In this document: positions 5,351-19,023 of the stretch, piece after piece
How positions within the stretch are numbered: the first letter of the stretch is position 1
How the letters are laid out: each line of letters starts with the position of its first letter
Assembly (NCBI GenBank): GCA_964010765.1
Contig: CAXGMD010000067.1
Coordinates: 1 to 19,023 of the forward strand
From: an uncultured bacterium
GTDB lineage: Bacteria > SAR324 > NAC60-12
Length of the DNA: 19,023 nucleotides
Direction: 5' to 3'
Notes under the pieces: generated by a model
Seen by the model: only the letters and a program-made list of their open reading frames with translations
Told to the model about the DNA's origin: nothing
Database searches by the model: none
Made by a program: the position numbers and the translations under genes

Positions 5351-5873
5351 GTTTTCTCCTATTGCTTACTTGGAAAATAGAAAATTTCCTCGAAAAATCT
5401 TCCCACACACTACTAAAAAATGAGCAGAGTTTTGGAAGTAATGGAATATATATCAAACAAATAGATTTCGAAGTCAAGTCATCATAGTCTAAATTTGTTT
5501 TTGCTCTACAAACCAGATGAACTTAATTGAGTTATAGATGTATGAAAAAATTAGTTATGTTTTAATTCATACTCCATAGTTTTCTTTCATGATAAGAGTT
5601 TTGTCAACTATTTAACTAAGTAATTATTCTAGTAATTCAGTACTTTACCTTTTTATTAAGAATAAATATTTACCTGCAAAACACTGAAAAGCAACTAATT
5701 GCGCATTTAATTGTTAAATTGAAAAAACTTTTTAAATTTAATCTAAAAATCAATTATTTTTCAAATAATTTTGAAGAATTAAATTAATCTTTTTGACAGT
5801 AAAATAGGATAGCTGAGTCATTAGAAACCATTAATCAATTGGTCAAACGATGTCGCAACTAGGTCAAACATAA

Positions 5874-5890
5874 TGAGACAACTTGTCTCA
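5874..5890. promoter_or_regulatory. Perfect palindrome, candidate transcription-factor operator
   Basis: TGAGACAA-C-TTGTCTCA in the 578-nt AT-rich spacer upstream of dctP. The 1-nt centre is too tight for a full RNA hairpin. Confidence 0.35.
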
Positions 5891-5928
5891 GATAAGATTT
5901 TTGAAAGGAGAGGGCTGAGATAGTTTCT

Positions 5929-6273
5929 TCAGGTGCAGGGGAAGTCTTGAGCGAGGATTTCACGTACTAGACTGGCCGCATTGTATCGACGTAATTCGGG
6001 GCGCTCACTCAACATCTTGAGTAATTTTTTAGTTAGAAAAGCGCTTTGAGTATCTGGCGTGACACAGATTTTCGGATCTCGCAGCAATGAGGCTGTATCA
6101 ACGGCTCCAAGGACATAGAACTTAGCAGCTGCTCGTTGCCCCACATCATTTGAATTCAATAAAGCAAATAGTTGCTCTCCAGTCACAAATCGGGCTGCCT
6201 GGCCTGCTGAAAGACTACCCACTACCATAGTAAGAAAAAGTAGCAGTGACAAGGACTGTCTAATAATTGTCAT
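5929..6273 (-). CDS. Rap1a/Tai-immunity-like secreted protein
   Basis: Signal peptide followed by the TGEQL...YVLGAVD...ICVTP...PE....AASLV..IL...FPC pattern of the Rap1a family; ATGA overlap with the cytochrome gene. Confidence 0.7.
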   Translation of the reverse strand: MTIIRQSLSLLLFLTMVVGSLSAGQAARFVTGEQLFALLNSNDVGQRAAAKFYVLGAVDTASLLRDPKICVTPDTQSAFLTKKLLKMLSERPELRRYNAASLVREILAQDFPCT

Positions 6274-6836
6274 GGTCGATAAGCTTGAATCCTTATTGAA
6301 CTGTACCAGCCAATGATTTTTTTAGTTTCTTCATCGCTTAAATGGTTTGCAATTGCGACCATACTGGCGTCTAAGTGCTTACCGCCTTCACGCAACGCCC
6401 TAAGCCTATTCACCAAATAAAATTCTGGTTGCCCAGCTAGTGTGGGGGCTTGTGGATTTCTAGAAATCCCAATTAAGCCATGGCAAGCTGAGCAAGTCTG
6501 TGCTGCTTGCTCATTCTTCGTAGGGTTCCAATAAGTGACTTCTACATCAAGCGAATCATACCAGTCTGCTAGTTCTTGAATTTTACTGTCATCTAGACCT
6601 TGAGAAACAACATTCATAAGTTCGTGTTCCCGATGTCCATCTCGATATAATTTAAGTTGTTTTACTATGTAGTTCGGAGATAAGCCCGCCAGATTAGGGC
6701 TATCAGGTCTGGCAGATATACCGAGGGGACCATGGCACACAGCGCAATGTTTCATAGCGCTGAGCTCCCCACCGTAGTCAGCCAATACATTTTGAGAAAA
6801 GATGATCAGTATTAGCGGCCAGAGATAGAGCAGCAT
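6270..6836 (-). CDS. Dihaem cytochrome c (c4/c553 type)
   Basis: Signal peptide and two repeated domains with CAVCH and CSACH, PNLAG/PTLAG motifs and distal Met ligands (HELMN, DASMV). Confidence 0.93.
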   Translation of the reverse strand: MLLYLWPLILIIFSQNVLADYGGELSAMKHCAVCHGPLGISARPDSPNLAGLSPNYIVKQLKLYRDGHREHELMNVVSQGLDDSKIQELADWYDSLDVEVTYWNPTKNEQAAQTCSACHGLIGISRNPQAPTLAGQPEFYLVNRLRALREGGKHLDASMVAIANHLSDEETKKIIGWYSSIRIQAYRP

Positions 6837-6910
6837 TTGTGCTTATGATTGTAGATGTTTTGGTCCTCACAAAGGGACCCATTCTTTAGCAAAGCTTGAG
6901 CAAGAATCGA

Positions 6911-6940
6911 AGGCTCTCCGAAAAAAATTTCAAAGAGCCT
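6911..6940 (-). terminator. Intergenic hairpin downstream of the dehydrogenase gene
   Basis: Minus-strand RNA AGGCUCUUUGAAA-UUUU-UUUCGGAGAGCCU forms 13 bp including two G-U pairs that work only on this strand. Confidence 0.55.
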
Positions 6941-6959
6941 GCCTTAACAAATGAAAAGA

Positions 6960-8231
6960 TCAGTTACCGTAGCTGATACGGTAGATGGCACCTACGTAGT
7001 CATCGGAAACTAGCATTGACCCATCCTTCATCATCGCCACATCAACTGGGCGGCCTTTATAAATACCAGTTTCATCCAGCCATCCCTCAGCAAATACTTC
7101 GGACTGACCGGCGGTACCATCATCGTTCAAAGGAATGAAGTTGATCAGGGCCCCTGATGGCTCTGTTCGGTTCCAAGAACCATGGGAAGCTACAAATATA
7201 CCACCCCGATACTTGCTTGGAAATTTCTGACCAGTATAAAAAGCCATTCCCAGTTGAGCTTGGTGCGCCGGGAAATTGACCTGTGGAAACACCGCACCGA
7301 CTGGTTCAGCCATATCTGCCAAATCTGGTGCTGCCCCAGATCCAGCAACTTTGTAGTCGCCGTTCCAGTATGGGAAGCCAAAGTGCTCACCAATGGTAGT
7401 TGAACGATTTAGCTCTCCTGGAGGTACGTTATCACCCAATCCATCAACCTGATTATCTGTCCACCATAGTGTGCCATCTGCAGGGTTAAAGCCCATACCT
7501 ACCGAATTGCGGACACCGCGTGAGTAGACCTCTCGTCCACTTCCATCGAAAGGATCTAGACGGATAATTCCACCGATTCCAATCTCATCGTAGTAATCAA
7601 CCTTCGTCGCAGGCTGAACATTGTATGGCTGACCTAAAGTTACATAGAGCTTGCCATCTGGGCCCACTTCACAAGTTCTAGCACCATGATTAAATGATTC
7701 TTCGGACTCCGGAATCAGATTTCCTTGCGAGACCACTTCAATCACAGCAACGTCTGGGCTCTCATAGAAGAACTCTGCCGCTGGAAAATTAAGAATCCGA
7801 TTGTGCTCCACGATGATCAAAAAACCATCTGGTGTGAAACAAACAGCGTTGGGAACTTTTTTGCTAATGGAAGGTGCAAATTCTTTAACTTCGTCAGCGA
7901 TGCTGTCGCCGTTTCGGTCAGTTACGGCCCAGACAGAAGTTTTGCGTGTGCCAACAAATACCATATTAGTGGCAAGCCCCACTGCCATCTCTCGTGCGTC
8001 TGGTACTATCGCGTAAAGTTCAATGTTGAAGCCTGGTGGTAACTTTACCTTTTCCAAGTTAGCTCGAATCGCGTCGGCATTTCGGCCTTCCTGAGGGACA
8101 GTCGGAATATCTAAGCTGATGCCTGTCACTTTCACATTCTTCAGCTTTTCAAGATTGTCCATCGCAAAAGCAGTTCCGCTCAGCGCTAGCAATGCACTGG
8201 TCATCAGTGCAAATGATTTTGAGAATTTCAT
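6960..8231 (-). CDS. PQQ-dependent sugar / L-sorbosone dehydrogenase family beta-propeller protein
   Basis: Signal peptide; motifs KLPPGFNIELYA, GPDGKLYVTLG, GVRNSVG, PPGELN, AHQAQLGM, HGSWNR, GRPVDV and LVSDD..GAIYRISY; divergent from the pqq operon. Confidence 0.92.
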   Translation of the reverse strand: MKFSKSFALMTSALLALSGTAFAMDNLEKLKNVKVTGISLDIPTVPQEGRNADAIRANLEKVKLPPGFNIELYAIVPDAREMAVGLATNMVFVGTRKTSVWAVTDRNGDSIADEVKEFAPSISKKVPNAVCFTPDGFLIIVEHNRILNFPAAEFFYESPDVAVIEVVSQGNLIPESEESFNHGARTCEVGPDGKLYVTLGQPYNVQPATKVDYYDEIGIGGIIRLDPFDGSGREVYSRGVRNSVGMGFNPADGTLWWTDNQVDGLGDNVPPGELNRSTTIGEHFGFPYWNGDYKVAGSGAAPDLADMAEPVGAVFPQVNFPAHQAQLGMAFYTGQKFPSKYRGGIFVASHGSWNRTEPSGALINFIPLNDDGTAGQSEVFAEGWLDETGIYKGRPVDVAMMKDGSMLVSDDYVGAIYRISYGN

Positions 8232-13816: not shown

Positions 13817-14557
13817 TTAATTCTGCTCTACTAGCTGCTGCCGGATCTCAGATCGAATCAAAGAATTTCTTTCAATTTGTTGAGTTTGAATGAGAGACTC
13901 TCGGACTATACTTGTGGGATCATTACCAAAAAAAATGATCCGGTCTGCGAATCGGATTGCTTCGTCCAAGTCATGTGTTACCAATAGCACTGCACAGCGA
14001 TTCTCAAGCCAGACCTCCATCATCAACTCTCGCAACACCTCCGCATTCTGTTGGTCCAAAGACACAAAAGGCTCATCCATGAGAAGGAGTTGGGGTTGAA
14101 CGGCAAAGGCCCTGGCCAATGAAACCCTTCTCGCCATACCTAATGACAGTTCTCCGGGAAATGATTTTCGAACATTTCCCACCCCCATTTGATCAAGGTA
14201 TCGCCATGGTAGGTCACTTGATTGCTGAGACTTCGGCAGTACCAGCCGAATGTTGCTCTCGACTGTCATCCAAGGTAAAAGCAGTGGATCTTGAAAGACG
14301 TAACCCAGCCTTGCTTGACCATCCTCAATTGTTGGGGATCCAAAAGTGAGTTTTCCTTCAAATTCAGAGTCAATCCCTGCAATCAGATTGAGAAGTGTTG
14401 TCTTGCCACACCCTGATGGCCCAAAAAGACAGACAAACTCCTGATCCTGCACCTCTAACACAATATTTTGAAGTACAGTTTGTACTTTTTGCGTTTCTGC
14501 GGACCGGAATGACTTCTTGTCAAGCTGTAGTCGCAGAACTCTGCCAGCGGCGAGCAC
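13817..14557 (-). CDS. ABC transporter ATP-binding protein, NitT/TauT family
   Basis: GPSGCGKT, VFQDPLLLPW, LSLGMARRVSLARA, LLLMDEPF and LVTHD motifs. Start uncertain: GTG at 14557 chosen; the open frame extends to TTG at 14605. Confidence 0.88.
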   Translation of the reverse strand: MLAAGRVLRLQLDKKSFRSAETQKVQTVLQNIVLEVQDQEFVCLFGPSGCGKTTLLNLIAGIDSEFEGKLTFGSPTIEDGQARLGYVFQDPLLLPWMTVESNIRLVLPKSQQSSDLPWRYLDQMGVGNVRKSFPGELSLGMARRVSLARAFAVQPQLLLMDEPFVSLDQQNAEVLRELMMEVWLENRCAVLLVTHDLDEAIRFADRIIFFGNDPTSIVRESLIQTQQIERNSLIRSEIRQQLVEQN

Positions 14558-15281
14558 GTCTTTCCAAGGGTTGAAGAACGCCCCACTCCAATGCCTGAAC
14601 AACAAGGATAAAGCTCAGGCTGTATGCCATCAGAGAAGCAACGTCGAATAATTGAAAATAAAAATGGATTTGGAACCCAATTCCTTCACTACGTCCCAAA
14701 AGTTCAACCACCAAAACAATTTTCCATATCAGTGAAAGTCCCGATCGGGCTGCTGCCATGGTATAGGGAACCAACTGTGGGACCCAGACATACCAGAACT
14801 GGTGCCAAACCGATAGTCGATAAGCTTTAGATAAATCATGGTATCTTGAATTAAAACTTCGGACTCCCTCGCGAAAGATAACCGCAACATTGGGGACTTT
14901 GTTGATAATTACTGCGGTCAGTGCTGCTGCTTCAATCAACCCTAACCAAAGGTAACAGAGAACAATCGTAACCAATGCAGGGATGTTTAGAAGGACGATC
15001 AACCACATGTCCAACCACGCATTGACACGGCGGCTGATTCCCATCCAAGAACCGAGCAGACTTCCGAGGGTCATCGCTACAAAAAAGCAAATAACAACTC
15101 TGCGTAGTGTCGCCCAAAGGTGTTTCCAAAGATCACCATCTGAGGCTTCGTGTATGAGGGAAGATAGAATATTGGAGGGAGGTGGCAACACCTGGCTTTG
15201 CTGCCACTGCGCGAGGACTTCCCAGAGGAACAACAAACTCAAGAGGCTGAGAATGTTGCTCCAGAAGCTTGAATTTTTCAC
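14520..15281 (-). CDS. ABC transporter permease, NitT/TauT family
   Basis: LPPPS, HLWATLRRV, LNIPALV and ARSGLSLIWKIVLVVELLG..GIG motifs; GTG start. Confidence 0.9.
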   Translation of the reverse strand: MKNSSFWSNILSLLSLLFLWEVLAQWQQSQVLPPPSNILSSLIHEASDGDLWKHLWATLRRVVICFFVAMTLGSLLGSWMGISRRVNAWLDMWLIVLLNIPALVTIVLCYLWLGLIEAAALTAVIINKVPNVAVIFREGVRSFNSRYHDLSKAYRLSVWHQFWYVWVPQLVPYTMAAARSGLSLIWKIVLVVELLGRSEGIGFQIHFYFQLFDVASLMAYSLSFILVVQALEWGVLQPLERRARRWQSSATTA

Positions 15282-15309
15282 GTGTGAATGGGCATCACCA
15301 ATTGATCAC

Positions 15310-16266
15310 TCAATCAAATTGCCAAAAGGTGCCCTGCATCAGTGTGCCACTTTCACCAGTGAGTTCTTTGCCACCATATTTGCCTAACTTCACGAATAAT
15401 ATTGCTGCGTCTTCTTGGTGAGCAATTGTAACTGGTTCTGGAATTCCATTTAAAAAACCTCTCTTCAGTTGTTGAAAGTGCTCTTCAGAGTTTGGCTTCA
15501 TTTTCTTGCGAAGGCGTTCCCAAGAGGCATCATCTTCTTGAAGCTTTTGCTTGGCTGCTGCTGAGGCTTTCGCCAATCCCTCTACCACTTTCGGGTTCTG
15601 GCGACCCCATTCTTCCATAAAGACATAGCCAATCATTGGAAGATTGGTCATCATTCCCAAATCTTTCTGAAGATCTGATAATTCTACCAAGCGATTCATA
15701 CCTTCTGCTTCCAGAGCAGCAGAAAAGTGCCAATATGTAATGACTGCGTCTAACCTGCCATTCATCAATTCCTTATTTAAGAGTGGCGGGGCACCATAGC
15801 TTGTTTCTACCCTGCCAAGATCCAACTGGTATTGGGGAGCAGCCGCTTGCAGAAGCAGCCAGCCTTTGCTCAGTGCACCACCCGCCACACCAACTTTCTT
15901 ACCTTCCAAATCTTTCAGGCTCTTGATGTTAGATTTTGGGTTCACCATCAATCCACCAACTGAGGAGGAGTAGGGAATAAAACTGTAATTTCTTCCCTTA
16001 GCTCGTTGACTGGAAACCCACATCCAATCAGCAACAGCTACATCAGCACCGCCGTTGAGCAGTGCCAATCTGGTAGCTGGCAAATTGGCCATCTTCACCA
16101 ACTCCATTTCAATTCCTGAACTTTTATCCAATCCGTAATGCTGGATGGTATCCAGTTCCCAGTTCACCGTGCCGTAGCTCAGTGTCGCCATTCTCAGTTT
16201 CTGCTCCGCTAATGCAACAGAACTAAGAGTAATCAAAATTATTATGCAAAGTAATTTCTTGCTCAT
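15310..16266 (-). CDS. ABC substrate-binding protein, NitT/TauT-like, PQQ-locus associated (candidate PqqT-type)
   Basis: Signal peptide; motifs GTVNWEL, DWMWV, PYSSSVGG, DLEGKKVGVAGG and GAPPLL; AGGGG RBS. Ligand assignment is inference. Confidence 0.85.
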   Translation of the reverse strand: MSKKLLCIIILITLSSVALAEQKLRMATLSYGTVNWELDTIQHYGLDKSSGIEMELVKMANLPATRLALLNGGADVAVADWMWVSSQRAKGRNYSFIPYSSSVGGLMVNPKSNIKSLKDLEGKKVGVAGGALSKGWLLLQAAAPQYQLDLGRVETSYGAPPLLNKELMNGRLDAVITYWHFSAALEAEGMNRLVELSDLQKDLGMMTNLPMIGYVFMEEWGRQNPKVVEGLAKASAAAKQKLQEDDASWERLRKKMKPNSEEHFQQLKRGFLNGIPEPVTIAHQEDAAILFVKLGKYGGKELTGESGTLMQGTFWQFD

Positions 16267-16580
16267 TTTTCCCCTTTCTGATCATTTCAAAGATTTCAGC
16301 TCTCCCCGGAACCAGAGAGTTTGGGCTACCAAAAAATTAAAGTTTATTTTGGTAAGTAAATTCATTCATATGACTTTATCATCATACACTAAATCAAACA
16401 AATATTTTGAAGCTACAGGACCATTCAACAGGACACACCCATTTCATCACAGTCGTCTCACTCAACTGTGGGTTTTAATAGATGGACCCAGTGGTAGTCA
16501 GTGTTGATGCAGAGCCAGAATAATTTGGTTTTAGACAACAAGGTATTTGGTGACAGGAGAGCATCAGTCAAAAAAGACAA

Positions 16581-17336
16581 ATGATCATGAAAACTTTTTT
16601 ACAATTCAAACTGATTTGGATCATACCATTTATTATCTACTTTCTGGGAGAGATTCTGCTGGCTTATGAACAGTCCGATCTTGATCGACTAGCCAGAACA
16701 AGAAAATGCATTGGCTGTGATTTTCGTGATGCCGATTTCAGCATGGGAAGCTTACTCAATCCAATTCTTGGACTTGCAGAGCTATTGGGAAGTGAACAAC
16801 GACGGGCAAGTCTTTTAGGCACTCTTATGGACGGAGCCGATTTACTTAAAACTGACCTGCAGCGAGTTGATGTGAGTCGGTCTGATTTTCGAGGGGCTCG
16901 ACTTCTAGGCGCAAATTTAGTGGGGACCTACATGGGGGAGGCAAATTTAAGTGGGGTTGATTTGAGGTTGGCTAATCTGCATGAAGTGAATCTACAAAAA
17001 GCGGATCTAAGCAACGCAAATTGCAGCGGCGCAAACATGTACGGAATCAATTTAGTGCAAGCAAAGCTGAAAGACGCAGATCTAAGTTTGGCGAACCTGC
17101 ACTTAGCTACTTTGCGGGAGGCTGATTTGAGCGGGGTGAATTTTCGAAGGGCAAACCTGAGTGGCGCAAACTTGAGTGGCGCAAACTTGCAAAAAACTAC
17201 TCTAGAAGGGGTAGATTTAAGTGGGGCTTATCTACGTGGAACCAATATCGATTTTGAAAGCCAAGTCAAGGATATTAGACTATGCAAAACGGTGATGCCT
17301 GATGGACAAATTAACAACCGAGATTGTGAAAAATGA
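16581..17336 (+). CDS. Secreted pentapeptide-repeat protein
   Basis: Hydrophobic N-terminus, CIGC cap, about 36 in-register A(D/N)LXX units and a C-terminal LCKTVMPDG...DC cap. Confidence 0.92.
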   Translation: MIMKTFLQFKLIWIIPFIIYFLGEILLAYEQSDLDRLARTRKCIGCDFRDADFSMGSLLNPILGLAELLGSEQRRASLLGTLMDGADLLKTDLQRVDVSRSDFRGARLLGANLVGTYMGEANLSGVDLRLANLHEVNLQKADLSNANCSGANMYGINLVQAKLKDADLSLANLHLATLREADLSGVNFRRANLSGANLSGANLQKTTLEGVDLSGAYLRGTNIDFESQVKDIRLCKTVMPDGQINNRDCEK

Positions 17337-17348
17337 ATTCTTGGATTT

Positions 17349-17513
17349 TCAATCCTTCAACTCAAACATCTCTTTAATTGCAAAAGAACTTTTTACAAAA
17401 ACTCTGTTCTGCAAAGTAACAAACTTCCCAATACCCAGGGTTTCACAATTCTTCCACACGTCGTTGTCAAACCACAAACTTCCCAATAGCTCCGCCTCTA
17501 TCGACCTCTTCAT
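17349..17513 (-). CDS. Possible 54-aa ORF just downstream of the TnpB-like gene
   Basis: ATG 5 nt after the TnpB-like stop; MKRSIEAELLGSLWFDNDVWKNCETLGIGKFVTLQNRVFVKSSFAIKEMFELKD* nearly fills the gap. No good RBS or recognised motif. Confidence 0.25.
   Translation of the reverse strand: MKRSIEAELLGSLWFDNDVWKNCETLGIGKFVTLQNRVFVKSSFAIKEMFELKD
17419..17488. repeat. 15-bp perfect direct repeat, two copies with a 40-nt spacer
   Basis: ACAAACTTCCCAATA at 17419-17433 and 17474-17488. Confidence 0.85.
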
Positions 17514-17518
17514 TGGGT

Positions 17519-18835
17519 TCAGGTGTACCTACTCAGTTCATTCTCTGAATGCTTGGCGCTTAGTGGAATTTGAGTAACATTGGCCAGAATCAGAGTCTCA
17601 AATCCACAAACATTGCAGCAAAAGCTATTCAAATTTCTCTGAACAAAACTTTTCACCCTACCACACTGACTACACCCCTGAGCTAATTCAGGGACCATGG
17701 CGAGGGTCAGTTCCCCACCGTGCCAATTCATTTTGTAGTCAAGTTGTTTAAGAAAATCGGCAACACCCAGCAAAGGTTCCGCAGAATCCACTGGACCACT
17801 TAATGCGCTCAAGTCTGTCACAACCAGTGATCGAAACCGAGAGGCCAGTTGATTGGTAATCTCATGACGCAACGATTTCAGCGCTTCAGCCCGCTTGTGC
17901 TGAAGCTTCGAAATTTGCTGACTTTGCTTTCTCCAGTTTTCTGAGAACTTATCTTTTCTTGCTAATTGGCGTCGCTTCTTAGCAATTTTTTGATCGACCA
18001 CTCGAACCAGGGTCCAAGTCCTATCCTGTTTGCCAGCTAGAGGATAAACAGTACCGTCTTGCAAGCTAACAGTGCTACCACTAAGAGTTACGAAACCAAT
18101 CTCTTCAGCAGCCGAGTGCCAATCGATATTCTCTTCCACTGTAAACCCGATATACCAATGTGCGTCGGATTCCTGAATTACCCGCTTTTGACCAATTTTG
18201 GCTGCCTCAGGAATCGGCCGATCCTGACGCATACGCATCAGACCTGGGCATTTTGGCATCCGAATTTCGGAGAAATAATCCTTACCACCGCAGGCCTTGG
18301 ACAAAGATTTGATGCTGACATCGTTCGGCTTCCAAAGAATTGAAAGGTGCGATTTGCGGCGTGGTACAGGGTAACCAAATGAATTTTTCGAAGCCTCCGA
18401 AATTTTCTTACCATTGCGTACACGACGATAAAAGTGCTGGAAGGCTTGGTGCAGGTCAACAACTAGCGCATTTTGCAGGCAACTGAATGGGATTTCTTTC
18501 ATCCAATCCGTTTGCCTACGCAATGCCGTCAACTCTTTACTCTGCTTCTGCCCAGTGATCATGTGCTTGATAGGTCTTGTCGAGGAATCGCTCCCAAGCG
18601 AAAATTGCTTGGCCAATGATTGCTTCTCCTCACTCTCATCTTTCTGCTGCTGGAATTCTGACAAACGTTGCTGGTGAAGCTCGTACAAACTAGGCAGTTT
18701 ATCATTCCTAGCCAAGCTTCTTTGCTGAAGCCCTAGATTGTAAATGTATCTACAACCCATTCCCACACGCAAAAGATATTTCTTCTGTTGAGGTGTAGGC
18801 TCTAGTCTGTATCTATATACTCGAGATACAATCAT
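17519..18835 (-). CDS. tnpB: IS200/IS605 TnpB-family protein, predicted nuclease-dead (TldR-like)
   Basis: N-terminal YRYRLEPTPQQ...CRYIYNLGL, ELTALRR..WMKE, WYIGFTVE, basic RRQLARK..SENWRK, FLKQLDYK..W.G and Zn finger CSQC/CNVC. The RuvC acidic triad is replaced. Confidence 0.88.
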   Translation of the reverse strand: MIVSRVYRYRLEPTPQQKKYLLRVGMGCRYIYNLGLQQRSLARNDKLPSLYELHQQRLSEFQQQKDESEEKQSLAKQFSLGSDSSTRPIKHMITGQKQSKELTALRRQTDWMKEIPFSCLQNALVVDLHQAFQHFYRRVRNGKKISEASKNSFGYPVPRRKSHLSILWKPNDVSIKSLSKACGGKDYFSEIRMPKCPGLMRMRQDRPIPEAAKIGQKRVIQESDAHWYIGFTVEENIDWHSAAEEIGFVTLSGSTVSLQDGTVYPLAGKQDRTWTLVRVVDQKIAKKRRQLARKDKFSENWRKQSQQISKLQHKRAEALKSLRHEITNQLASRFRSLVVTDLSALSGPVDSAEPLLGVADFLKQLDYKMNWHGGELTLAMVPELAQGCSQCGRVKSFVQRNLNSFCCNVCGFETLILANVTQIPLSAKHSENELSRYT

Positions 18836-18845
18836 TTCCAGCGAT

Positions 18846-18953
18846 TTGACAGGGATGTGGGATATGGGTTCCTGCTTCGACGAAATAGAGCAATTCGGCT
18901 AAGAATCGACTTACGTTTTCTCCACAGGCGTAAATTCCGATGGTTTTCACCGT
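18846..18953 (-). ncRNA. Putative omegaRNA/guide-RNA scaffold upstream of the TnpB-like gene
   Basis: Minus strand: hairpin CGGTG-AAAAC-CATCG, then GGAATTTACGCCTGTGGAG...GTAAG, inner hairpin CGATTC/GAATTG, then TCGAAGCAGGAA and a terminal TGTCAA. This is the motif order of IS605 right-end RNAs; CCUGU can pair with GCAGG. Boundaries are approximate. Confidence 0.7.
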
Positions 18954-19023
18954 ATAATTTATTAAATATTCATAATTTTTTCTGAAAATCAACCATTTAG
19001 TTAATATAAATTAAAAAAAAGTA

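Follow-up and report, generated by a model that had tools for sequence, protein, structure and literature searches.

The omegaRNA of IS200/IS605 transposons begins in or beside the 3′ end of tnpB and extends to the right end of the transposon, and, to our knowledge, all known TnpB, Fanzor, and TldR systems have the guide RNA at the effector gene's 3′ end. The omegaRNA of IscB (HEARO) is encoded 5′ of its effector gene, as in the locus described here, with the guide at the 5′ end of the RNA; its RNA and protein families are unrelated to those of this locus. In both TldR clades analyzed in a preprint, guide RNAs are stated to be encoded downstream of tldR, and known TldRs use guides of 9 to 16 nt and scaffolds of roughly 97 to 100 nt (10.1101/2023.11.30.569447). 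That preprint contradicts an earlier note on this DNA, which had placed the guides of oppF-linked TldRs upstream of the gene. RAGATH-18 is the guide RNA core of IS607 TnpBs, and in the solved IS607 guide RNA, a 3′ flank of 64 nt separates RAGATH-18 from the guide (PMC11061315).

Here, we analyze a nuclease-dead tnpB homolog and the scaffold preceding it in an uncultured marine bacterium; the window (19,023 nt) is an entire contig. Compared with the fliC-, oppF-, and csrA-associated TldR clades (10.1101/2023.11.30.569447; PMC13622181), the locus likewise has a TnpB homolog with an inactivated RuvC, no transposase or recognizable transposon ends, an omegaRNA-like scaffold less than 500 bp from the gene, and a single copy under purifying selection. 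It differs from them in belonging to an unrelated lineage, in having its sole omegaRNA-like element upstream, with the guide position on the gene's own start, and in that no TAM-flanked promoter target was found in this incomplete genome, with the contig ending at 19023. The reRNA of an IS607 TnpB (ISFba1; PMC11061315; PDB ID 8iaz) shares with our scaffold the outer stem and the GGAG / CG.UGAAGCAGGAA loops, and our protein model matches 8iaz. In contrast, the RAGATH-18 score here is under the Rfam cutoff, the inner part measures 31 nt versus 42 in the RAGATH-18 model, the 64-nt 3′ flank with its pseudoknots is absent, and the element lies 5′ of the gene instead of 13 nt downstream of it.

Results

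The features of the locus are collected in Table 1. The 438-residue protein carries the Pfam domains HTH_OrfB_IS605, OrfB_IS605, and TNB (the last at 24.3 bits, under the 26.3 cutoff), and the best fold matches of its model (mean pLDDT, 80) are the TnpB structures 8h1j (E 1.8e-18) and 8iaz (E 8.9e-16). Its closest active relatives are 32 to 38% identical. The RuvC D/E/D residues are replaced by T/T/L (in alignment A3, IGFVTL versus IDLG, VVTDL versus VEDL, and ETLILAN versus NADVNA), the E-to-T change being seen against ISDra2 TnpB as well. Between the window and L007, the only intact full-length gene of a second locus type, pN is 0.19 and pS is 0.71 (dN/dS of about 0.1), with dN peaking in the C-terminal nuclease quarter and at its lowest in the N-terminal and middle parts, as expected if binding was kept and cutting was lost. 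A search for the Y1 transposase family, PF01797, had no match in the 92%-complete genome.

Table 1. Features of the locus, with positions in the window
Feature	Positions	Strand	Basis or remark
OmegaRNA/reRNA-type scaffold, 108 nt, ACGGTG to TCAA	18846..18953	-	Homology in 11/11 aligned upstream stretches
5′ hairpin CGGUG-AAAAC-CAUCG	18938..18952	-	RNAalifold; 92% of cells pair
RAGATH-18-like kink-turn module	18869..18928	-	Rfam RF03064, sub-cutoff score
Inner variable hairpin, CGAUU...AAUUG in the window	18891..18908	-	CGACU...AGUCG in the other lineage
C-rich tract CCCATATCCCACATCCC	18852..18868	-	At the place of the terminal (TnpA-type) hairpin of active relatives
TCAA, counterpart of the IS right-end terminus	18846..18849	-	Comparison with G073 copies
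Guide-position segment ATCGCTGGAAATGATT	18830..18845	-	Position from right-end homology
AT-rich 5′ flank, unconserved	18954..19023	-	Contig end at 19023
Nuclease-dead TnpB homolog (TldR-like), 438 aa	17519..18835	-	Pfam, fold match, RuvC residues
Conserved 3′ tail	17405..17518	-	Homology with the second locus type ends here

The earlier note had proposed an omegaRNA-type scaffold 5′ of this nuclease-dead tnpB, and homology, element order, and the RuvC losses all agree with it. The sequence features that it named are present on the minus strand: GGAATTTACGCCTGTGGAG (18937-18919), GTAAG (18914-18910), TCGAAGCAGGAA (18880-18869), and TGTCAA (18851-18846). The outer stem of the kink-turn module is CCUGU/GCAGG, with GGAG and CG.CGAAG as its loops; from the end of the module (18869), only 19 nt lead to TCAA and 33 nt to the ATG. 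Within the guide-position segment, the dead tnpB has its ribosome-binding region and its ATG (18835-18833). Translated, the frame at 18813..18992(-) gives ...TVKTIGIYACGENVSRFLAELLYFVEAGTHIPHP, a C-terminal tail of the TnpB type, as had been claimed, and the same type of tail ends active TnpBs (LNACGE in P0004, LNACGD in P0018, LNACGK in L021, and SACED in L019). The DNA upstream of the scaffold, earlier described as AT rich, holds 8 G/C in 70 bases (19023-18954); a DNA contig of run X1 continues past 19019 in AT-rich letters and has roughly 840 further bases upstream of 19023, and a 22-nt stretch of this loose end had no match in the assembly.

The elements of the scaffold are ordered as in the omegaRNA part found 3′ in an active TnpB family. 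In the IS200/IS605 omegaRNA of the active, multicopy G073 family, hairpin, linker, kink-turn stem, and 3′ TCAA succeed one another as they do here, and translation of the 5′ half gives a TnpB C-terminal tail (..ACGE..EAGT..). Unlike that omegaRNA, our scaffold is immobile, has a C-rich tract in place of the terminal hairpin, and shares no bases with the 3′ end of a tnpB. In the 0.4 to 1.4 kb upstream of the scaffold in relatives, neither a tnpB nor a TnpB coding relic was found. The terminal hairpin of the active relative is CCUCUUCC-UUCA-GGGAGAGG, followed by AGAGUUCAA; in the window, the C-rich letters 18868-18852 stand in place of this subterminal right-end hairpin. The loss of a GC-rich terminal hairpin suspected earlier is real by comparison with the active relative. 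Likeness among G073 copies is lost within a base of ...GAGAGTTCAA in four of the six other matches (query 224-225 of 350); one of the remaining two stops earlier, at 210, and the other, a short one, reaches 234. The first guide candidate of the earlier note (18845-18830) thus begins exactly at the point that corresponds to the right end of the active relative's IS; no second match above chance was found for it in the assembly. When the covariance model R1 was run against the omegaRNAs of active relatives and 14 other sources, only the window matched; the homology of the scaffold therefore rests on alignment and architecture. On the basis of these sequences, we consider the identity of the scaffold, its upstream position, and the losses of the terminal hairpin and of the nuclease residues to be established.

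RAGATH-18 (RF03064) was the top Rfam match both in 2 kb of the window (24.8 bits, E 0.095) and in 1.9 kb of L008 (25.6 bits, E 0.054), two scores under the gathering score of 44.9 bits, and neither search gave a HEARO match. The covariance-model check proposed earlier thus gave a match, but one below the Rfam cutoff. In both alignments, the outer stem of RAGATH-18 is present together with its conserved loop letters, GGAG and CGaUGAAgcAGgAA, the loops reading CCUGUGGAG...CG(U/A)CGAAGCAGGAA in the window and L008. An Rfam search of 29 kb of relatives returned no match at E ≤ 1, RAGATH-18 included. The RNAalifold consensus of 11 homologous stretches has four helices, namely, the 5′ hairpin, the outer CCUGU/GCAGG stem, GAA/UUC, and the inner variable hairpin, and the fold energy of the single scaffold sequence is no better than that of shuffles (z +0.67). 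Across 10 scaffolds, which come from few independent lineages, 93.5% of cells pair; in the same set, covariation is weak and not significant, with two pairs changed on both sides, a count equaled by 89 of 500 shuffles. Both of these changes fall in the inner variable hairpin, in which 9 of 20 positions are identical between lineages and pairing is largely retained. Three observations go beyond chance, namely, RAGATH-18 as the best Rfam match in two diverged lineages, the conservation of the core, and the loss of the terminal hairpin compared with the active relative.

Together with the ORF and a 3′ tail of 115 nt, the scaffold makes up a 1.55-kb unit (18955-17405), which recurs at 71% identity in a second, unrelated genomic context; homology between the two locus types stops sharply at 18955 and 17405. 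Synonymous sites are saturated between the window and L007 (4-fold sites identical at 51/123, or 41%), while the scaffold core is 88 to 93% identical (42/45 in columns 1-45 and 22/25 in columns 66-90). Since the core lies so far above 4-fold sites, we conclude that the scaffold is under selection; purifying selection acts on its core as it does on the ORF. Conservation is strongest in the first 45 nt at the 5′ side, inside which the 5′ hairpin lies. The C-rich tract can be aligned between lineages if small indels are allowed, and the alignment surpasses those of shuffles (fraction, 0.001 to 0.048). The 3′ tail reaches 87% (17485-17456) and 93% (17440-17411) identity, versus about 70% for the ORF. 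It contains the direct repeat TATTGGGAAGTTTG twice (plus strand, 17475-17488 and 17420-17433) and a terminal hairpin at 17408-17431, and no convincing homology emerged when the tail was aligned with the DNA 3′ of an active, P0006-like gene.

Model R1 matched 2 of 88 genomes of the phylum, both of them carriers of the dead gene and only beside the dead tnpB; within this set of sequences, scaffold and dead gene co-occur strictly. Each genome has one copy of the unit, and a scan of genome contigs gave two loci, one of which is unrelated. Among the 12 loci of the second type, only L007 is intact at full length, and the reading frame of L015 is open over the 121 codons available; the other 10 are disrupted by stops, frameshifts, a start other than ATG, or a deletion, so that the function is dispensable there. 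L016, a pseudogene copy in heavy decay, has lost the integrity of its GCAGG strand as well. The earlier note had named, as a finding against it, an origin of the scaffold as the eroded right end of a separate upstream IS; since scaffold and dead gene are kept together in a second, strongly diverged locus, this objection fails. The scaffold had no blastn match among plasmids, and a search for the empty site in nine genomes of the genus found only a contig ending inside the pentapeptide gene.

For the assembly-wide target search, we used as the query the 43 nt after GCAGGAA, which comprise the C-rich tract and the post-TCAA segment. Its 12-mers (exact), 16-mers (≤2 mismatches), and 20-mers (≤4) had only chance-level matches in the 3.86-Mb assembly. 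The C-rich tract, the other guide proposed earlier, is not supported as such: no target was found for it, and its partial conservation between lineages makes it look like scaffold rather than guide. The post-TCAA segment is the gene start and differs between lineages. Neither were guide matches found within the loci themselves, nor matches of 9 to 12 nt for the upstream candidates in the ABC-transporter/pentapeptide intergenic region, where a query from the downstream flank had a single 9-nt match, at 16596. For the flank after the 3′ tail and the leader of the second type, 14-mers (≤1 mismatch) were at chance level with one exception: over 14 nt, the start region of the second type is identical to a motif shared by the 5′ UTRs of three small paralogous genes, a match that we judged to be due to chance.

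RNA-library contigs from three studies cover the 5′ ORF and run on into the scaffold, as far as 18920, 18922, and 18935; these data are contigs, from which strand, ends, transcription, and expression level are not readable. They join the scaffold to the 5′ ORF, and the earlier idea of a stand-alone guide RNA is not supported. Two of them end inside the scaffold, at 18920 and 18922. In X15 and X17, there is a hole at 18460-18517 and no cover at 18924-19023, both without meaning in contig data, and the 5′ contig of X15 has a depth of 212 versus 15 to 40, which is not valid as a ranking. Promoter and terminator scans of the minus strand upstream of the gene found no site.

Discussion

We tentatively favor, at somewhat less than even confidence, the reading that 18953-18846 is a domesticated, immobilized omegaRNA-type scaffold, now serving as the 5′ leader of a nuclease-dead, TldR-like TnpB gene. 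The leader or guide RNA of this TldR-like protein is probably cis-regulatory; the locus suggests a tamed RNA-guided regulator, which may act on its own gene. The leader would be transcribed together with the gene, and the dead TnpB would still bind the kink-turn scaffold. Because the ribosome-binding region and start codon of the gene itself would occupy the guide position, binding would feed back on the gene, either at the RNA level, with the translation start occluded or severed, or at the DNA level, through an R-loop roadblock at the 5′ end of the gene. The leader-bearing transcript could also be processed to free a guide RNA of ~110 to 125 nt. The transcription start, protein binding, processing, and regulatory outcome are steps that we infer. 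A transposon's intact donor end is normally not a TnpB target, as it has no TAM, so DNA self-targeting would need a TAM match, as yet unproven. In the guide-over-start geometry of a domesticated leader, the scaffold-proximal end faces the promoter, an orientation reported to be repressive in a 5′ UTR for TldR (10.1101/2023.11.30.569447).

A more specific proposal, which we regard as unlikely, is that the dead TnpB loads its own mRNA leader, takes the start of its own gene as the guide, and shuts itself off. With such a guide, the RNP would return to its own locus or remain bound to the transcript of its own gene. The TAM would in this case be a co-opted right-end terminus, (N)TCAA. If true, this would be a one-gene RNA-guided autoregulatory circuit and the first TnpB-derived system with a guide RNA gene 5′ of, and fused to, its effector gene.

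Alternatively, the scaffold may be an inherited relic, that is, the leftover right end of another, tandem, or nested IS kept as a promoter, operator, or 5′ UTR with no role as an RNA partner. The scaffold plainly derives from a TnpB 3′ tail and right end, its terminal hairpin is gone, and covariation is weak; the peak of conservation in the 5′ 45 nt (42/45) might be a DNA-level signal, so this block could instead be a promoter or operator, and two RNA contigs end at 18920/18922. We nevertheless find this account rather unlikely, as no sigma-70-like site was found on the minus strand from 19023 to 18836 or in L008, there is no upstream tnpB relic, and the conserved parts are both strands of the kink-turn stem and the loops, while the inner hairpin drifts with its pairing kept, a pattern that points to constraint on RNA and not on DNA. 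The two unrelated contexts and the sharp borders at 18955 and 17405 would also suit a present or recent nonautonomous mobile element made of the whole 1.55-kb unit, with scaffold and 3′ tail as its transposition ends, both more conserved than the ORF, and with a subterminal hairpin at the 3′ end followed by GCA(G/A)A. A single copy per genome, the lack of a Y1 transposase match, and the lack of a hairpin common to the two ends make this distinctly improbable; a dead nuclease ORF at a dN/dS of about 0.1 is unexpected for a selfish passenger, and since neutral flanks are unalignable at such divergence, the borders may mark only the limits of constraint.

Two further possibilities keep a guide RNA but direct it elsewhere. 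A trans-acting RNA, with the C-rich tract or the 9 to 16 nt after TCAA as the guide, might send the dead TnpB to a distant promoter; the 118 nt before the ATG could hold a scaffold and guide of known TldR sizes, and a target may lie beyond this incomplete genome and the contig end at 19023. Given that no 12-, 16-, or 20-mer matched the 3.86-Mb assembly above chance, that the neighboring ABC-transporter promoter region had no match, that the C-rich tract is partly conserved, and that the post-TCAA segment is a mere, lineage-variable gene start, we consider this very unlikely. Least credible of all is a split guide RNA, in which the upstream scaffold (hairpin and kink-turn) and the downstream tail (G-rich repeat, hairpin, and variable flank) jointly take the place of a single omegaRNA, much as tracrRNA and crRNA act as a pair, with the guide after ...TACTTTGCA at 17405. 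The upstream C-rich CCCA.AU.CCC is partly complementary to the downstream GGGUAUUGGG, the tail is as conserved as the scaffold, and its end coincides with the end of homology. Against this, duplex energies are not clearly above shuffles (fractions, 0.063, 0.123, 0.330, and 0.003, i.e., no better in three of four lineages), the pairing registers are inconsistent between lineages, the two parts do not covary, and the downstream flank has no target.

In contrast to known systems, the only guide-like scaffold here lies 5′ of the effector gene, where it is under selection and directed at the start codon of that gene. A scan of 3′ flanks alone would miss this scaffold. A functional domesticated leader would show that, on domestication of TnpB, RNA and protein genes can be rearranged relative to each other, and it would offer a compact, self-limiting RNA-guided module. 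An abundant marine lineage would then be added to the few TldR clades known; the stretch is present in 14 DNA runs from seven studies.

Anatomy of the scaffold and its dead TnpB

The 108-nt element ahead of the dead tnpB is an omegaRNA-type scaffold. An earlier note had reported such a scaffold upstream of the gene, and this observation is confirmed. The residual reading frame of the scaffold yields TVKTIGIYACGE...VEAGT, which resembles the C-terminal tail of active TnpBs (P0004, P0018, L021, and L019). RAGATH-18 was the top Rfam match in 2 kb (18928-18869, 24.8 bits, E 0.095) and again the best in the diverged second lineage (25.6 bits). Both scores lie well under the 44.9-bit cut-off, and the family was not listed at E ≤ 1 in a search of 29 kb; we regard the match as a lead, short of membership. 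According to the parts of the source consulted, RAGATH-18 is the core of the IS607 TnpB guide RNA, in which, as solved, 64 nt separate it from the guide (PMC11061315).

An active, multicopy TnpB family of another genome, G073, is an independent anatomical reference. In four of the six other matches in that genome, likeness ceases within one base of ...GAGAGTTCAA; a fifth stops before it, and a short match extends 10 bases further. Folding of the RNA ahead of this point gives first a hairpin, then a CUUG/CAAG stem with an inner stem inside it, and last a terminal hairpin (CCUCUUCC/GGGAGAGG). The window scaffold has the same order: a CGGUG/CAUCG hairpin, a CCUGU/GCAGG stem around inner stems, a C-rich tract in the place of the terminal hairpin, and TCAA (18849-18846). 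In IS608-type elements, TCAA is where the right end is cleaved. By right-end homology, the guide position starts at 18845 and covers the ribosome-binding region and ATG of the dead gene, coinciding with the first guide proposed in the earlier note. Unlike the active G073 omegaRNA, the scaffold has no terminal hairpin, and on score, position, and this hairpin it falls outside both RAGATH-18 and the canonical omegaRNA. The covariance model of the scaffold, R1, misses the G073 omegaRNAs. Covariation is weak: two pairs are compensatory, a result matched by 89 of 500 shuffles, and slid controls pair far less; the single-sequence fold is no better than those of shuffles.

The 438-codon ORF is a nuclease-dead TnpB. 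HTH_OrfB_IS605 and OrfB_IS605 exceed their Pfam cut-offs, and the Cas12f1-like TNB domain reaches 24.3 bits, under its cut-off of 26.3. The AlphaFold model (mean pLDDT 80) best matches ISDra2 TnpB (8h1j, E 1.8e-18) and the RAGATH-18-guided ISFba1 TnpB (8iaz, E 8.9e-16). The nearest active relatives (P0006-P0009, 32-38% identity) have N-terminal insertions in common with the ORF and retain IDLG, EDL, and ADVNA; in alignment with them, its three RuvC positions are T, T, and L (IGFVTL, VVTDL, and ETLILAN), the E-to-T change being apparent also against ISDra2 TnpB. The window-type protein occurs intact, at 438 aa, on numerous contigs, 64 for one member sequence and 43 for another. No Y1 transposase was found in the 92%-complete genome. 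Elsewhere in the phylum, an active IS605-type element with a canonical tail (L019, G015:C318, 1447-2940) carries a divergent Y1 tnpA alongside an active 386-aa tnpB ending ...SACEDIRPLAV.

Layout of the dead tnpB locus and its neighbors
Feature	Position	Strand	Remark
AT-rich flank	19023-18954	-	first of the ordered elements at the window end
omegaRNA-type element, 108 nt	18953-18846	-	
Spacer, 10 nt		-	between the 108-nt element and the ORF
ORF, 438 codons	18835-17519	-	
Conserved 3' tail, 115 nt	17518-17405	-	
Pentapeptide-repeat protein	16581-17336	+	by reading of translations
ABC transporter operon, binding protein	15310-16266	-	by reading of translations
ABC transporter operon, permease	14520-15281	-	by reading of translations
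ABC transporter operon, ATPase	13817-14605	-	by reading of translations

Conservation and presence in libraries

Related loci came from a second genome of the genus (G003) and 12 metagenome loci, and the scaffold directly precedes the gene in the window and in all 10 loci whose sequence reaches that far. L006 belongs to the window type, the orthologues L004 and L007-L015 are 91-96% alike, and L016 and L017 are more diverged copies in the same context as these orthologues. Since these loci are not independent, the informative comparison is between the window type and the second type, whose homology is limited to 18955-17405 (71% identity), with unrelated flanks. Across the ORF, pN is 0.19 and pS 0.71 (saturated), giving a dN/dS of ~0.1, and 51 of 123 fourfold degenerate sites are identical. 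Identity peaks in the scaffold (97%) and the 3' tail (93%): 42 of 45 residues agree in scaffold columns 1-45 and 22 of 25 in columns 66-90, whereas the inner hairpin keeps its pairing with 9 of 20. In the same alignment as columns 1-45, the last 25 columns share 11 residues; under gap-aware alignment, the C-rich tract is more alike than shuffles (fractions 0.001-0.048). Because identity is high against saturated neutral sites, the scaffold core is under purifying selection. Among 88 genomes of the phylum, R1 matches only the two with the dead gene. The 0.4-1.4 kb of DNA preceding the scaffold in L008, L009, and L016 contains no TnpB coding relic (all matches E > 0.1).

The second type keeps a full ORF only in L007 (and the P0002 cluster), and L015 is open across the 121 codons available; stops, frameshifts, a non-ATG (ATA) start, or a deletion mark L004, L008-L014, L016, and L017. 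Second-type copies are thus mostly pseudogenes. The gene is intact in L007 and in the window type; L016, the most decayed copy, has lost the GCAGG strand of the scaffold. In the second context, the unit lies within ~5 kb without ORFs of at least 90 aa (L008:2685-3880 and 5436-8080), and a conserved upstream block (GATGATTGTGCAAGCTATCGGAAAGCCAATG) is common to 9 of 10 relatives. A contig of the window's own assembly (L022, G000:C131:5263-7143) shares 99.4% identity with the DNA preceding the second-type locus (L008:1-2883) and stops ~1 kb short of the scaffold there. Either this organism may have a second copy that went unassembled, or strains may be mixed in the bin.

The window stretch is present in 14 DNA runs of 7 studies (at least 96% of its words) and in 6 metatranscriptome runs. 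RNA-library contigs from three libraries of three studies unite the 5' ORF with the scaffold (18555-18920, 18565-18922, and 18733-18935), contigs being blind to strand, ends, and level, and such libraries being open to DNA contamination. Two of them (two studies) end at 18920 and 18922, where DNA continues, which hints weakly at an RNA end; the third extends to 18935. The second type is also present in a DNA run, in which the loose end at 18955 equals the L008 flank.

Possible roles of the leader

In its putative way of working, the scaffold most resembles the TldR guide. TnpB is said, by Nety et al. in 2023, to process its own mRNA into omegaRNA. In the parts of the TldR preprint consulted, mature RNAs comprise a scaffold of ~97-100 nt and a guide of 9-16 nt, and the guide RNA gene lies downstream of tldR in both the fliC- and oppF-associated clades (10.1101/2023.11.30.569447). 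The earlier note's background claim of an upstream oppF-linked guide is thus wrong; its interpretation is partly supported, in the scaffold type, the position, and the placing of the first guide candidate. Neither the parts consulted of the two TldR papers (10.1101/2023.11.30.569447; PMC13622181) nor the literature listings describe a TnpB or TldR guide encoded upstream; the 2026 follow-up, as far as consulted, presents three characterized TldR clades and states that further domestications have yet to be characterized (PMC13622181).

We tentatively favor, at somewhat less than even confidence, an omegaRNA-type leader that has been domesticated: the dead TnpB would still use it, it would act in cis on the gene's own expression, and its release as a guide RNA is possible. 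The chief alternative, a relic retained as promoter or leader DNA, seems rather unlikely to us. Weighed against a functional guide RNA are the weak covariation, the unremarkable single fold, the failure of R1 on G073, the missing terminal hairpin, the 64-nt IS607 gap, the second-type pseudogenes, and the lack of a target: no match was found for any candidate guide, including in the intergenic region of the adjoining ABC transporter operon and pentapeptide-repeat gene (13817-17336). Since every copy of the active relatives sits at a contig end, a TAM could not be derived; as the window is the entire contig, the assembly has nothing past 19023.

Three small paralogous genes of the same assembly (G000:C68:8037, C68:10846, and C258:1160) have in common a conserved 5' UTR ending ...AAATCACGGATACCAGCATAAGGAG, and two of them encode ~130-aa proteins starting MAN(E/A)LKGKST. 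Over 14 nt, the complement of this motif agrees with the start region of the second-type tldR, probably a chance match.

The 3' tail contains TATTGGGAAGTTTG twice (+ strand, 17420-17433 and 17475-17488) and a terminal hairpin ending GCA(G/A)A, past which the locus types diverge. Pairing of the upstream C-rich tract with this G-rich repeat was considered and is unsupported. The tail is 87-93% identical between lineages with saturated synonymous sites. It could be what is left of the right end belonging to this gene, could resemble a terminator as a 3' structure, or could belong to the RNA machinery.
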